Notes: generated from the sequence alone by a model not told the origin. A stretch of 64,000 nucleotides of DNA from an uncultured Fidelibacterota bacterium (GCA_913040915.1 CAJWHW010000003.1:9701-73700); one strand, 5' to 3'; counted from the first letter of the stretch, positions 23,362 through 59,870 are shown. Made by a program: numbers and translations.

Positions 23362-25023
23362 TTGATGAATTGGATAAATAAACTTCTTTTAAATCTGTCA
23401 ATCATTTCTCTTATAAGCGCAAGCGAATTATCTGTTCGACAATCTTACCATACCCTTTTTCTCGATAGCAGTAATGTCTGTGGTACTCCGTACATAAACA
23501 ATATAATTCGCCAAGGCCCCAGCGAACTAACAGAAGCTGAAAAATTAAAGATGGATGAAGTTGGACTGTTTATTCAGGGTAATGAAATTATTTCAAAGAA
23601 ATCTACTGATTTAGATCAAATATATGATACAGAACATTTTCGGTTTTATTATACTCTCGATGAATCATCTATTCATGTTGTGGAAAATCAAGGTTATGTA
23701 ATCACTATGGGTGAAGTGTTTGAAAATGTCTGGGACTTTTTTATGGATACTCTGGGATTCGAACAACCTCTTTTAAATCCGGAAAATGATCATTCACTAT
23801 ACGAAATCTATATTGAATATTTATCCCCTCAATATTTTGCTCTAACATATGGGCAAGGTTTTGGAGCATCCTGCCATGGATTTATAAAAATGCGAAATTC
23901 ATATTCTGGTTCACAATTTGATGATAATACAGTATTAGAAAATATCCAGGTTACAGCAGTACATGAATTTTTTCATGCAATTCAATTCAGTTATAATTGT
24001 TATGAAGAATTCTGGTTTATGGAAGCAACTGCAGTCTGGAGTGAGGATGAATTATTTAATGATATCAATGATTTCTATCGTTATATACCTACTTTTTTTT
24101 CAAACCCAGATGATCCCATTGGCACAGAAGGTAATTTCATGTATGGGACCTGTATCTTTTTCCAGTATATTGATGAACATTTGGGAGGGCGAGAAACCAT
24201 CCGCAAAAGCTGGGATTATTCTAGAGATTATGCCAGCCCAACAAAAAATATAAGTTACATGTCAATAGATGCTGCACTTCAGGATAACAATTCCAGTTTA
24301 GAAACGGCAATAAATCAGATGCGGATAGCGAACCTAATTCTTAGTTCCAATGAAGCAGCTGGTATTTATGCGTATGATGAAGCTGATGGCTATTTAACTG
24401 TGGTAAATCATCCACCAAAAGAAGATTACCTAATATTTGAAAAAGGGAACATTGATCAGATTGAAAATTTTTCACTCCAACGCTACAGTTCACATTATTA
24501 CTCTCTTACTACTGAATCTCCCGTATCATTATCACTAATAGCAACAAGTGGAGAGTTTTACTTTACATCGGTAGTGAAAATTTATGGGACTGACCAATGG
24601 GTAGTAAAGAGTGGATCAGAACTCAATATAGATCCAAAAATTGGGATTGATTGGATCGCATTAATTGTTTCTGCAATTGGAAAAGATGCAGATAATTGGG
24701 ATTATATTTTACGCTTAGATGATGGCTATTCAGAGGATTATACATTTTACCCACCTTACCCTAACCCTTCTTATGGACAAAGCATAAACTTTCAATTTCA
24801 AGTAATCACAGAACAAACTGTTGATTTTCGAATAATTGATTTATTAGGTCAGGAAATTTGGCATATCTCTAACTATTATGATGAACCCGAAGTCATAACT
24901 ATTGTTTGGCATGGAACAAACCATTTTGGCAAACAGGTCGCAAATGGTATTTATTTAGGTATTATGAAAGGAGAATCAAAAACAACACTACAGAAGTTTA
25001 CCTATTTAAAAAAATCAGATTGA
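23362..25023 (+). CDS. Secreted HExxH-motif putative zinc metalloprotease with T9SS C-terminal sorting domain
   Basis: 553 aa with a signal peptide. It has the VTAVHEFFHAIQ motif. The C-terminal roughly 85 aa (YPPYPNPSYGQSINFQFQV...GIYLGIMKGESKTTLQKFTYLK) match the T9SS type A CTD pattern. The likely ATG start is at 23365. Confidence 0.65.
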   Translation: MMNWINKLLLNLSIISLISASELSVRQSYHTLFLDSSNVCGTPYINNIIRQGPSELTEAEKLKMDEVGLFIQGNEIISKKSTDLDQIYDTEHFRFYYTLDESSIHVVENQGYVITMGEVFENVWDFFMDTLGFEQPLLNPENDHSLYEIYIEYLSPQYFALTYGQGFGASCHGFIKMRNSYSGSQFDDNTVLENIQVTAVHEFFHAIQFSYNCYEEFWFMEATAVWSEDELFNDINDFYRYIPTFFSNPDDPIGTEGNFMYGTCIFFQYIDEHLGGRETIRKSWDYSRDYASPTKNISYMSIDAALQDNNSSLETAINQMRIANLILSSNEAAGIYAYDEADGYLTVVNHPPKEDYLIFEKGNIDQIENFSLQRYSSHYYSLTTESPVSLSLIATSGEFYFTSVVKIYGTDQWVVKSGSELNIDPKIGIDWIALIVSAIGKDADNWDYILRLDDGYSEDYTFYPPYPNPSYGQSINFQFQVITEQTVDFRIIDLLGQEIWHISNYYDEPEVITIVWHGTNHFGKQVANGIYLGIMKGESKTTLQKFTYLKKSD

Positions 25024-25884
25024 TTCTGTAATTGTTCGAATCTCTTTTAGAATTTCTAAATAGTTTTCTTTTCCTTCTGTAAATCTAGAAATGTATTTCA
25101 TAGGTTTATCTTTTCTACCTACCAGAATGACATTAGCACCAGCTTCTTTTCTTGCTACTCTATCAATATTAGATAAAAACTGTTCATATTTATCTAATTT
25201 AATCCTGTATTCCTCGAGTTGAAGTGAGAGTTCTTGCACATAAAGCGAATAAGATGATTTAGGGTCTTGAAATAATGATTCATTTAAAACCTTATTAAAA
25301 TAATCAATATGCGGATCCAACAATTCTCTTTTATAACGGATGGTGTACAGGTGTTTTTTCAAAGGGATTGCTTCTTCATCCACATAAATGATCATCTTTT
25401 TAACTTTTTTAAAACCCTTTTCTAGTTTTTCTCTTTCTTTCGTATACTGTCTTTGAGATTTCTGAATAGAAATACTAAGGGAACGTAACATTTTTTGATA
25501 AGTAACGTTAGTGTCTGATGGGATTGTTTCGAGATCTATTGTATCTGTTTTTTTCATCTTACGTACTAATTTAACCAATTCCCTTGTAAGACTATCAACT
25601 TCTAAAATAGCATTGTTCATTCCTGTGTAACTGGGATCCAATCTCTCATATATTCGCAAATCATTATCTAAATAATACCGTAACTCCTTTTTCATTATTG
25701 GTTGCAGGTCATCCATATTTCTTGTTTCGGTTTTAGACCATTGCCGAATATTCAAGATCTGAACATCTACGGAATATACGTCATGCAATCTCCAAGGCTT
25801 AATTCGTCCCGCACAGTCCGCAAAAAAAAACAGGGTTCCCACTATTGCGAAAACCCTGGTCAATGCAAATAAACTGAAATTCAA
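25015..25884 (-). CDS. Hypothetical lipoprotein, coiled-coil rich
   Basis: 289 aa. It has a lipobox-like LFFFADC and a K/E/L-rich heptad-like sequence. Its stop overlaps the stop of the convergent gene (TCAGATTGA, 25015..25023). It overlaps the glutaredoxin gene by 4 nt. Confidence 0.55.
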   Translation of the reverse strand: MNFSLFALTRVFAIVGTLFFFADCAGRIKPWRLHDVYSVDVQILNIRQWSKTETRNMDDLQPIMKKELRYYLDNDLRIYERLDPSYTGMNNAILEVDSLTRELVKLVRKMKKTDTIDLETIPSDTNVTYQKMLRSLSISIQKSQRQYTKEREKLEKGFKKVKKMIIYVDEEAIPLKKHLYTIRYKRELLDPHIDYFNKVLNESLFQDPKSSYSLYVQELSLQLEEYRIKLDKYEQFLSNIDRVARKEAGANVILVGRKDKPMKYISRFTEGKENYLEILKEIRTITESI

Positions 25885-26120
25885 ACTTTCAAATTCCCTT
25901 CATTGTAATATTGAACCAGGTTATCAAACCCACCAATGGGTTTTTCATCAATCACAATTTGGGGAACAGTACGTCCACCGGTCAATTTAAAAAGATCATC
26001 ACGACTAATCTCTTTTTCTTCAATGTCTATAGTTTGAAAAGGGAGACTCAATTCATTCAATAAACTTTTGGCAGAATTACAGGGTCCACACCAACTAGTT
26101 GAGTATATTTTAATTTTCAT
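25881..26120 (-). CDS. Glutaredoxin
   Basis: 79 aa. It has the CGPC active site, TVPQIVID and GGFDNL motifs. It lies 2 nt downstream of the C25 gene. Confidence 0.85.
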   Translation of the reverse strand: MKIKIYSTSWCGPCNSAKSLLNELSLPFQTIDIEEKEISRDDLFKLTGGRTVPQIVIDEKPIGGFDNLVQYYNEGNLKV

Positions 26121-26122
26121 AT

Positions 26123-59365: not shown

Positions 59366-59779
59366 CTATTCTTCTTCTGGTGAACCGTAACCGCTAAATC
59401 TACCATTATCCGCATCGTAGACTACAACCTTACCTGCACCACCAGACATTTCTTCAGTACTTGTAGCAGTAATCCTACCTCCTTGATCACTGAGTGCGAT
59501 ATCAAATGACCATTTTAGTTTGGTGGAGCGTTCTACGTCAAGTTTCCCGGCTCTTTCTAGCTGATCAATTTCTGATGGCCATTCGCCCTTTTCTTGATAA
59601 TACATTTTGGAAGCATTACTAACATTAGACATCACTGTTCTTGCTTCGGATGCGTAACCACTACTTACTAAATCAAAATAAGTTGGTAGCGCGATTACCG
59701 CCAGAATAGCAACAATTACAACAACAACCATTATCTCAATCATCGTGAAGCCTGATTGTATTTTCTTTTTAAGGTTCAT
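59366..59779 (-). CDS. pilA: Type IVa major pilin
   Basis: The track ORF extends to 59842. The ATG at 59779 gives MNLKKKIQSG/FTMIEIMVVVVIVAILAVIALP, a classic short leader with Gly-Phe cleavage and Glu at +5. AAGGAG lies 10 nt upstream. It encodes 137 aa with no Cys pair. Confidence 0.85.
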   Translation of the reverse strand: MNLKKKIQSGFTMIEIMVVVVIVAILAVIALPTYFDLVSSGYASEARTVMSNVSNASKMYYQEKGEWPSEIDQLERAGKLDVERSTKLKWSFDIALSDQGGRITATSTEEMSGGAGKVVVYDADNGRFSGYGSPEEE

Positions 59780-59799
59780 TGTTCCCCATCTCCTTTTTA

Positions 59800-59828
59800 T
59801 CATTATTTTTTTGAAAATTAGGTGTAAA
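59800..59828 (-). promoter_or_regulatory. Putative sigma70-type promoter of the pilA operon
   Basis: On the minus strand: TTTACA (59828..59823), a 17-nt spacer, then TAATGA (59805..59800). It lies downstream of the terminator at 59871..59905. This is pattern matching only. Confidence 0.35.
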
Positions 59829-59870
59829 GACAGACCTCCCATATAGGATCCTATTGCCCTAACTCAAAAT

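Follow-up and report, generated by a model that had tools for sequence, protein, structure and literature searches.

Cyclic AMP receptor proteins of the CRP/Vfr/SyCRP1 type control type IV pili, the CRP consensus site being TGTGA-N6-TCACA, and in Pseudomonas the genes of the type IVa pilus are scattered across several loci. For poly-γ-glutamate (PGA), the closest described system is the Gram-negative operon of capB, capC, and a third gene ("PgsF"), described for Cloacimonadota and for known Gram-negative producers; in Cloacimonadota, a related phylum, the three-gene PGA operon is found with the pilus operon at another place (10.1101/2025.11.11.687785). In Porphyromonas gingivalis, the gingipains, PorU, and the M14 carboxypeptidase CPG70 are cargo of type IX secretion (T9SS) (PMC5445135, PMC4560394), and both the gingipains and the PorU sortase keep a Cys/His dyad (PMC4560394). 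Here, we analyzed a 64,000-nt stretch from an uncultured Fidelibacterota bacterium (GCA_913040915.1, CAJWHW010000003.1:9701-73700; hereafter the window), in which a type IVa pilus operon, a PGA operon, and gingipain-like C25 genes follow one another on the minus strand.

An initial annotation had described 26 consecutive minus-strand coding sequences from the pilA start (59779) down to a lipoprotein-like open reading frame (ORF) ending at 25015, with no gap larger than 39 nt (31678..31716), and had assigned them to the pilus, a C25-dockerin protein, PGA, and secreted proteases, the run ending in a collision with a convergent gene. Our ORF listing of 25015-59842 agrees, as it contains 25 ORFs of ≥80 aa on the minus strand together with the 79-aa glutaredoxin (25881..26120), and the remaining gaps are 35, 25, 21, 21, 19, and ≤11 nt or are overlaps. 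Pfam and NCBIfam profiles support the gene content, and the last ORF overlaps the convergent gene 23362..25023 (+) by 9 nt. The start of the run had to be revised, as same-strand genes at 59913..63887 and 63924..64000 lie upstream of pilA. We consider it probable that the region is a clade-specific super-cluster, in which separable modules stand head to tail and are transcribed with read-through. The evolutionarily robust unit is the block of PGA, envelope, C25-dockerin, and surface-protein genes, a new variant of the Gram-negative PGA system. The array resembles the "superoperons" of compact bacterial genomes, in which same-strand genes extend over tens of kilobases with minimal spacers and few terminators, and transcripts overlap the junctions. 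Unlike these, it brings together envelope modules that differ in function, and sister clades differ in its composition; the fusion can therefore be placed on one branch.

The nearest PgsB relatives are all marine metagenome-assembled or single-cell genomes, and those with a taxon name belong to Candidatus Neomarinimicrobiota/Marinimicrobia (SAR406). The T9SS C-terminal domains (CTDs) predicted on many proteins of the window fit the Fibrobacteres–Chlorobi–Bacteroidetes superphylum. The window's own clade (clade A) was represented by 33 species-representative PgsB-anchored loci (PgsB 57-86% identity) and by 38 of 80 pilT-anchored metagenome loci, those longer than 11 kb. Wherever the contig was long enough, the 33 loci carried the order Big-lipoprotein–pilB–pilC–pilD–C25dock–pgsB–pgsC–u388–u292–u343–u345–1019-aa–M14 on a single strand. 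All 38 longer pilT-anchored loci read M6-like–pilA–pilT–…–pilQ–Big-lipoprotein, and loci anchored on the second C25 gene extended the order to M14–C25–grx–lipoprotein. Junction gaps were small and near-constant in every lineage, the sole long spacer being that between the M6-like gene and pilA (median 132 nt). The deepest clade-A loci lack pilD at this position, and pilC is followed by C25dock after a 126-nt spacer (L027 6232..6359; L124 4628..4755); their prepilin peptidase must therefore be encoded elsewhere.

Using the TIGR04332 protein (u388) as a probe, we reached two deeper clades of Marinimicrobia at ~40-50% identity. No pilus genes were found within 8-10 kb upstream of clade-B pgsB (L120-L122; L125 begins at pgsB); upstream lie TldD/PmbA, nucleases, or cytochrome c, HD, SpoIIE, and ETF genes on the other strand. 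Clade-B pgsB has its own promoter-bearing spacer of 168-262 nt with a conserved TATATTTC box, and in one clade-B locus a strong terminator closes the gene upstream of pgsB. In clade C (L123), a pilA–pilT–minor pilins–750-aa block is carried by the opposite strand and diverges from C25dock across 486 nt. Thus, the pilus block is separable, since it was not seen nearby in clade B and is inverted in clade C. What stays linked in clades A, B, and C is the PGA synthase, the three envelope genes, the C25-dockerin gene, and the gene for a large T9SS-type surface protein. The pilD–C25–pgsB adjacency raised in the initial annotation is accordingly conserved through clade A, apart from its deepest members, and the link to the pilus breaks in clades B and C.

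As a control, we followed the flanks in relatives at 61-69% identity, where synteny runs on, just as it does in the window, into the convergent pair and the AlaRS, PCC, RidA, DUF5683, and SNF transporter genes. Because these flanking housekeeping genes are conserved too, conservation of gene order is a general property of these genomes. The co-inheritance that had been proposed for the run is therefore real across clade A but not specific to the cluster.

The packing of the run is likewise not special and is the default for this genome, because 46 of the 49 genes in the window lie on the minus strand (the exceptions being an S20-like gene at 7535..7789 and two genes within 22651..25023) and because ~22 kb of unrelated housekeeping genes is packed equally tightly. 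With 94% co-orientation, a particular stretch of 26 genes would lie entirely on the minus strand with a probability of ~0.2. The neighboring segment 368..22492 holds 18 ORFs, 16 with a family match and functionally unrelated, with gaps of ≤18 nt at 15 of 17 junctions, and our terminator scan found no intergenic terminator within it. The window has a G+C content of ~35% and a negative GC skew in 32 of 32 bins.

Two relatives were well covered in eight metatranscriptome runs. The first is one organism seen in two loci (L070 and L026, with 100% overlap), and its pilT and pgsB are 92% and 81% identical to those of the window; the second (L031) has a pgsB 71% identical. Depth over L070/L026 varied within 20 kb between 48 (pntAB, on the opposite strand) and 3, with the same pattern between runs. 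This difference of more than 10-fold within 20 kb, repeated over eight runs, argues against DNA carry-over. In the M6–pilA spacer of L070, run X31 had no coverage upstream, its contig of depth 26.6 beginning at 9531, whereas in X29 depth rose from 8-12 to 26 (contig from 9448) and in X33 from ≤8 to 22. The promoter/operator-like element described below occupies 9454-9481 of this locus, at the depth step. Contigs of 2.4-4.5 kb starting at ~9450-9560 run through pilA, pilT, the minor-pilin genes, and the 750-aa gene.

All junctions examined downstream in L026 were bridged. Single contigs at 2419-9867 (X27), 4804-9986 (X26), and 5295-11043 (X29) cover pilB/C/D–C25dock–pgsB(–pgsC), so that pilD, C25dock, and pgsB stand together in single contigs of 5.2-7.4 kb in three runs. 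In L031, junctions from the Big-lipoprotein to the 1019-aa gene were bridged, and among the contigs listed none spans pilC/pilD, u292/u343, or u343/u345. Together, the two relatives show bridging of almost every junction examined, from M6→pilA to T9_1019→M14. The window's own population (runs X19 and X23-X25) gave contigs of only ~150 nt; one (26082..26246) spans the junction of the second C25 gene (C25_T9) and grx, and another extends over the pilA start as far as 59865, 9 nt downstream of the CGTT of the element.

Depth was not uniform along the run. In L026 it dropped two- to three-fold over u388–u345 (X29: 19.6 to 7-10), rose in the 1019-aa gene (contig 14906-18319, 12.8 compared with 7-10 before), and fell in the M14 gene; the PGA and accessory genes had the lowest depth in most runs. 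Steps lie at pgsB/u388 and ahead of the 1019-aa gene, and no conserved internal promoter or terminator motif was found. These data suggest internal modulation of expression along the run. The long polycistronic transcription suspected in the initial annotation is thus supported by junction-spanning contigs in two relatives, but the stepped depth makes a single uniform 34-kb message unlikely.

We searched for the signals that might bound this transcription. Directly after the stop codon of the M6-like gene, in the 133-nt spacer ahead of pilA, lies a perfect TGTGA-N6-TCACA palindrome (59901..59886; TGTGAGTGAAATCACA). The surrounding element, with the consensus aAagTGTGAGTaaaaTCACActttttttCGTTtTt.tatTgagt from 54 distinct sequences, was present ahead of pilA in nearly every locus covering the spacer, and in the aligned relatives TGTGAGT and CGTT are invariant at a fixed spacing of 17 nt. 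TGTGAGT-N17-CGTT has one exact match in the window where 0.03 is expected, and in 1.54 Mb of related loci the pattern occurs only upstream of pilA, apart from four coding look-alikes. In alignments of the 220 nt preceding each gene, pilA through M14, the TGTGAGT before pilA is the only invariant non-coding island of ≥7 nt. A second TGTGAGT…CGTT, upstream of the M6-like gene, was rejected as a promoter, as it consists of codons of a T9SS CTD motif.

A hairpin plus T-tract had been noted at 59871..59905. The hairpin exists (59905..59882) and belongs to the promoter/operator-like element, which in most lineages also folds as a weak terminator of the upstream gene. It is not the conserved feature, because the most divergent lineages have lost the right half, TCACA, and retain the TGTGAGT half-site and CGTT. 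The hairpin is also leaky, since two runs bridge M6→pilA.

The palindrome in the pilA promoter region, together with a Crp homologue in the window, is reminiscent of CRP/Vfr/SyCRP1 control. The recognition helix of the homologue (6667..7383), SRETVSR, with the RETVxR pattern, matches SRETVGR of Escherichia coli CRP, which makes this protein a candidate binder of the palindrome; binding is predicted from sequence. Unlike CRP control, only the TGTGAGT half-site and CGTT survive in the most divergent lineages, and a sigma-factor reading of TGTGAGT-N17-CGTT as an extracytoplasmic-function-like -35/-10 pair is equally possible. Sigma-70 -35/-10 hexamers at conserved positions upstream of genes were not found, a weak negative, as the thresholds would miss a plausible housekeeping promoter, the TTGTTC-17-TAATTT upstream of 22492. 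Consensus promoter and terminator scans of the window gave counts equal to the shuffled expectation, so raw matches are uninformative. Neither an Rfam scan over the entire window nor a sensitive one over the pilA leader returned anything; no known riboswitch or small RNA explains the spacer.

At the other end, an RNAfold-based terminator scan of both strands over the whole 64 kb identified a sole strong minus-strand intrinsic terminator (25858..25831), just past the grx stop and inside the last ORF. The earlier statement that no hairpin plus T-tract lies inside the run does not hold. In two lineages (L116-L119) the terminator is conserved, with the GC-rich stem arms kept and the loop changed (L116 13464..13491; L118 13445..13472), and in 14 relatives no terminator was seen at a conserved position inside the run. 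The terminator falls on the stretch of the next ORF (codons 9-21) that codes for a lipoprotein signal peptide (RVFA[IL]VGTLF[FL]F…C), and the peptide is conserved as well. This position in the 5′ coding region of the lipoprotein ORF could point to attenuation or to read-through-dependent expression. Separately, two contigs of one lineage (L114 and L115) encode an identical C25 protein and have identical upstream genes and, from ~14320, wholly different genes past the lipoprotein gene, PKD/CotH/cold-shock in one and FGE-sulfatase/LppC/BacA in the other. This reflects either a breakpoint between strains or variability of the region where the cluster ends.

The PGA genes encode a predicted synthase of the Gram-negative type, and PGA production itself is a prediction from these genes. 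PgsB and PgsC scored 414 bits against TIGR04012 (cut-off 223) and 117 bits against TIGR04011 (cut-off 96), and u388 (37697..38863) scored 297 bits against TIGR04332 (cut-off 100), placing a third subunit in the position of PgsA/CapA; no PGA_cap domain was matched in the Pfam scan of the proteins of the PGA region. An AlphaFold2 model of u388 (predicted local distance difference test (pLDDT) 82) shows an alpha/beta domain and, at the termini, two membrane helices; it lacks structural neighbors in the PDB (TM ≤0.2), and this fold is silent on function. The TIGR04332 family is large, with 1247 clusters at 50% identity.

Three accessory genes, u292, u343, and u345, follow; PDB sequence searches with these and with u388 gave no meaningful match. 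For u343 (35810..36841, 343 aa), the named homologues among 168 matches were all from Marinimicrobia. Its AlphaFold2 model, built on a 35-sequence alignment (pLDDT 84.5, predicted TM-score 0.79), consists of a signal peptide followed by 14 long antiparallel strands, and Foldseek returned outer-membrane porins, with the top TM-scores for the 14-stranded OmpG and CymA. We conclude that u343 is, by its predicted structure, a 14-stranded outer-membrane beta-barrel. A lipoprotein signal is present in u345 (34786..35823, 345 aa), and LVIVD beta-propeller repeats were matched in 8 of 11 orthologues; u292 (292 aa) carries a signal peptide, and neither Pfam nor the PDB yielded a detectable relative. 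With the synthase, these proteins look like an envelope-spanning diderm set, comprising an inner-membrane synthase, a periplasmic or secreted protein, an outer-membrane lipoprotein, and an outer-membrane channel. These proteins would export PGA.

Compared with the Gram-negative capB–capC–PgsF operon (10.1101/2025.11.11.687785), the window has the same gene order and equivalog-level scores for PgsB and PgsC, with TIGR04332 replacing PgsA/CapA. It differs in that the module is always followed by the secreted protein, the 14-stranded outer-membrane barrel, and the LVIVD lipoprotein, with named barrel homologues only from Marinimicrobia, and in that genes for a C25-dockerin protein and a large T9SS-type protein always accompany it. 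In the clade of the window, moreover, the module lacks its own intergenic promoter spacer.

The C25 proteins share the fold and the gingipain-type propeptide of the P. gingivalis enzymes (PF01364, 153 and 199 bits; Propeptide_C25, 92 bits) and their association with T9SS C-terminal domains, and the M14 carboxypeptidase gene beside them recalls the CPG70–gingipain partnership. In an alignment of C25dock with RgpB (1cvr, E=2.4e-20), Cys244 is retained (VITCGTGSF), but Tyr429 occupies the His211 site (NYRGY compared with NYTGH), and Glu152 falls in an alignment gap. All C25dock orthologues have NYRG[YF], C25_T9 has NYRGW, with the catalytic His replaced by Trp, and the clade-B protein has NYRGL; in every orthologue seen, then, the His is Tyr, Phe, Trp, or Leu and the Cys is kept. 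Unlike the gingipains and PorU, the window's C25 proteins thus have the catalytic His replaced and the Glu absent, and, unlike in the gingipains, one paralogue ends in a dockerin in place of a CTD. Because a feature that defines C25 peptidases is missing, both homologues may not be proteases but pseudo-proteases. The extracellular proteolysis proposed in the initial annotation is therefore doubtful, although the M14 protein (HxxE) and the M6-like protein (HEFFH) retain their metal-binding motifs.

T9SS sorting domains (Por_Secre_tail, PF18962, cut-off 27) were matched at 30.0, 36.6, and 28.9 bits in the 1019-aa, M14, and M6-like proteins. In C25_T9 the PF18962 score of 18.8 bits is under the cut-off, and TIGR04183 scored 23.5 against a cut-off of 23. 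Identification of the C25/CTD protein as PorU was rejected, its NF033707 score of 41 bits being far short of the 420 cut-off. A NIDO-like extracellular domain is common to the M6-like protein and both C25 proteins (tblastn cross-matches at 25-31% identity; Pfam NIDO is faint in relatives). In clade C (L123 14230..21122), dockerins take the place of the T9SS CTDs at the C-termini of the 1019-aa and second-C25 homologues, and the two C-terminal modules appear to be interchangeable in this protein set; no cohesin was found.

The pilus module is complete in its type IVa core set, namely prepilin, PilB/PilT/PilC, PilMNO with a PilP-like protein, PilQ, and an A24 peptidase. PilA has a prepilin motif (PF07963, 31.8 bits, cut-off 21.2; TIGR02532, 32.5 bits, cut-off 16.3), with 59779 as its most plausible start (MNLKKKIQSG/FTMIEIM). 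PilM_2, PilN, PilO, and Secretin scored 140, 25.3, 40.2, and 128 bits, above the Pfam cut-offs, and the PilP-like protein (52105..52704) gave a weak match to TIGR03021 (1.8e-5, 25.7 against a cut-off of 34.65). PilB scored 450 bits against T2SSE and 621 bits against TIGR02538, slightly below the 676 cut-off, PilC 198 bits against T2SSF, and the A24 prepilin peptidase PilD 38.3 bits against PF01478 (cut-off 26.5), with no NCBIfam match. As in the type IVa sets of Pseudomonas, Myxococcus, and Thermus, every core component is recognizable, including minor-pilin-like proteins. The window differs from these sets in that all of its genes form one contiguous co-directional array, that a 975-aa Big_1 lipoprotein gene is inserted between pilQ and pilB, that PilB carries an MshE-type cyclic di-GMP-binding domain, and that the array continues directly into non-pilus genes with junctions of 8-43 nt.

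The MshE-type domain is N-terminal in PilB (45968..47686; NF053729, 54.5 bits, cut-off 38), which suggests that pilus assembly may be under cyclic di-GMP control. A 143-nt overlap of pilQ with the next gene is only apparent and disappears with the true start of the Big_1 lipoprotein at 50638, 11 nt past the pilQ stop, with AAGGAG before it and the signal MFKIK…LAC (lipobox) after it. In some lineages the PilP-like protein reaches 453 aa through a low-complexity C-terminal extension rich in Lys/Ser/Thr/Pro (L088 16633..17994; L089, L096, L099, L100, and L102); the ~900 nt of extra sequence between pilP and pilQ in some loci was rejected as a new gene, as it is this extension.

Beyond the run, the product of the convergent gene 23362..25023 (+) is likewise a secreted protein, with an HExxH motif (HEFFH; DUF6055 in relatives) and a weak T9SS tail, so surface and secreted proteins continue on the other strand. 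A conserved sigma-70-like element, TTGTTC-N17-TAATTT, precedes the 518-aa gene 20936..22492 (window 22493..22650; L116 ~16740..16790), and this predicted promoter shows that ordinary -35/-10 promoters are in use in this genome. The coordinates of all features are collected in Table 1.

Table 1. Features of the 64-kb window and gene orders of the PGA region in the two deeper clades
Feature	Position	Strand	Basis or remark
Further upstream gene, 3′ end only	63924..64000	-	T9SS CTD motif (…SGGTYIYRL…KMVLLK*); run continues beyond the window
M6-like metalloprotease-like protein, 1324 aa	59913..63887	-	HEFFH, RTX repeats, T9SS CTD (Pfam); position upstream of pilA conserved
Promoter/operator-like element TGTGAGTGAAATCACACTTTTTTTCGTT	59874..59901	-	CRP-type palindrome TGTGA-N6-TCACA, then invariant CGTT 17 nt after TGTGAGT
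pilA, major type IV pilin	59366..59779	-	N-terminal methylation motif
pilT, retraction ATPase	58308..59360	-	TIGR01420, 481 bits (cut-off 319)
Two minor-pilin-like genes	57831..58307, 57196..57834	-	Pilin-type G/F…E N-termini; no family match
750-aa pilus-associated protein	within 54951..58307	-	No family match; gene order conserved
pilM, pilN, pilO, pilP-like (52105..52704), secretin pilQ	50650..54929	-	Pfam PilM_2, PilN, PilO, Secretin
Large lipoprotein, Big_1 Ig-like domains, 975 aa	47706..50638	-	Domain match and lipobox
pilB, pilC, pilD (prepilin peptidase)	44074..47686	-	Profile matches
C25dock, gingipain-like, 1193 aa	40484..44065	-	C25 propeptide, C25 domain, C-terminal dockerin (Pfam)
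pgsB, pgsC, u388 (TIGR04332 "poly-gamma-glutamate system protein")	37697..40458	-	Gram-negative-type three-gene synthase (predicted)
Three accessory genes u292, u343, u345	34786..37719	-	No family match; so far only in Marinimicrobia
Three T9SS-tailed surface proteins	26123..34776	-	1019-aa protein of no assigned family; M14 carboxypeptidase (HxxE); second C25 (26123..29308)
Glutaredoxin (grx), 79 aa	25881..26120	-	Pfam, 62.9 bits; last gene before terminator
Intrinsic terminator	25822..25858 (hairpin 25858..25831)	-	12-bp stem, dG -17 kcal/mol, T9
Lipoprotein-like ORF, 289 aa	25015..25884	-	Overlaps terminator and, by 9 nt, convergent gene 23362..25023 (+)
Crp-family regulator, cyclic-nucleotide-binding (cNMP) domain	6667..7383	-	52 kb from pilA palindrome; recognition helix SRETVSR
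Family matches in neighboring segment, first half	368..22492		ABC ATPase, Kdo transferase, heptosyltransferase, polyprenyl synthase, TatC, MeaB, Crp, IMPDH
Family matches in neighboring segment, rest	368..22492		Aromatic amino-acid lyase, DinG-like helicase, geranylgeranyl-reductase-like flavoprotein, SNF transporter, DUF5683, RidA, PCC, AlaRS
Clade B	L120-L122, L125		pgsB–pgsC–u388–u292-like–u343-like–LVIVD protein–C25(+NIDO+dockerin, ~1500 aa)–1019-aa-like
Clade C	L123		C25dock–pgsB–pgsC–u388–three genes–1019-aa-like–M14–C25, the window's order

Based on these data, we propose that three modules follow one another. The first would be the complete type IVa pilus operon from pilA to pilD; the second a ten-gene envelope block of C25dock, PgsB–PgsC–TIGR04332, the secreted protein, the outer-membrane barrel, the LVIVD lipoprotein, and the three T9SS-tailed proteins; and the third the glutaredoxin gene. 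Transcription would start or be boosted at the CRP-type element before pilA, where the depth step was seen in a relative. RNA polymerase would then read through, as mRNAs overlapping almost every junction examined from pilA to M14 in the two relatives suggest, because junctions of 0-39 nt leave little room for terminators and none lies at a conserved position. It probably stops at the sole strong terminator after grx. Expression would be tiered rather than flat, with internal modulation, to judge from contig depths, a weak measure. The PGA synthase, the envelope proteins, the C25-dockerin protein, and the T9SS-type protein would together probably form a diderm-type system for PGA synthesis, export, and surface decoration. 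The pilus–PGA join would be an operon fusion confined to this clade, in a genome that defaults to co-orientation and tight packing.

Several points weigh against this proposal. The RNA contigs are unstranded metatranscriptome assemblies, which can merge overlapping transcripts and could hold some DNA, and the long ones all come from relatives (pgsB 71-81% identical) and not from the organism of the window. Contig depth is a crude measure, and transcript extents were taken from contig spans, not from mapped 5′ and 3′ ends. Clades were assigned from protein identities and not from a phylogeny, and the roles of the accessory proteins and of the Crp site are drawn from fold and sequence only. Furthermore, the pilus block adjoins C25dock–PGA in two clades despite the inversion, which hints at more than chance.

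This last point bears on the reading offered in the initial annotation, that the whole 35 kb is one selected, co-regulated surface program expressed from one long message, with interdependent functions. Gene order and tiny gaps are indeed perfectly conserved across clade A, but nearby unrelated housekeeping genes match the run in packing, strand, and synteny. RNA contigs bridge the pilus/C25dock/PGA junctions, and one conserved 5′ promoter-like element and one conserved 3′ terminator enclose a run with nothing conserved between; RNA depth, however, is stepped two- to five-fold along it. The clade-C pilus block still neighbors C25dock–PGA, yet the two blocks are divergent there, clade B has no pilus genes 8-10 kb upstream of PGA, and the Cloacimonadota three-gene PGA operon lies apart from the pilus operon (10.1101/2025.11.11.687785). 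The lack of the catalytic His in the C25 "proteases" also speaks against a program that includes proteolysis. We therefore regard this reading as rather doubtful. What stands of a composite surface program, as opposed to three independent loci, is co-inheritance and read-through in relatives, whereas the pilus–PGA join is clade-specific and the proteolysis arm questionable. That the adjacency is meaningless, with independent operons side by side in a streamlined collinear genome and RNA contigs that are DNA carry-over or merged separate transcripts, would suit the genome-wide co-orientation and packing, the general collinearity with relatives, the unstranded contigs in which DNA can be present, and a pilus block separable in clades B and C, but it is improbable given a depth range of more than 10-fold within 20 kb that was the same over eight runs and zero upstream of pilA in one, terminator-free junctions of 8-43 nt that make read-through hard to avoid, and a C25-dockerin gene and PGA module that stay linked through rearrangements in three clades.

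Our preferred account of a clade-specific super-cluster with read-through can be extended to a bolder proposal, which we advance as speculative and, on balance, unlikely. SAR406 would have an undescribed diderm-type PGA system of PgsBC–TIGR04332 with a dedicated 14-stranded outer-membrane channel, a propeller lipoprotein, and a secreted protein, in which catalytically altered gingipain-like proteins with dockerin or T9SS anchors are displayed on or through a polyanionic layer, and in one clade this system would be fused behind a Crp-controlled pilus operon.

SAR406/Marinimicrobia are uncultured, sequences of the clade occur in many of the marine metagenomes and metatranscriptomes searched, and particle attachment and feeding by SAR406 have been deduced from genomes alone. 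For annotators, the locus carries a caution: in streamlined, co-oriented genomes, a long same-strand run alone is not evidence of a functional unit. Comparative and RNA data still extract the parts that travel together, here a PGA synthesis and export block with new envelope components and C25-like partners, and a second testable unit is the conserved Crp-type control element of the pilus operon. As the block is fused, inverted, or separate in three clades, it offers a natural experiment on whether operon fusion alters co-expression at sea. Reconstructions of SAR406 commonly count gingipain-like proteins as peptidases; with the catalytic His missing, these may not be proteases. If a diderm PGA system is indeed fused behind a Crp-controlled pilus, one cAMP-type signal would switch on a fiber, a capsule, and surface proteins together, for example on marine particles.

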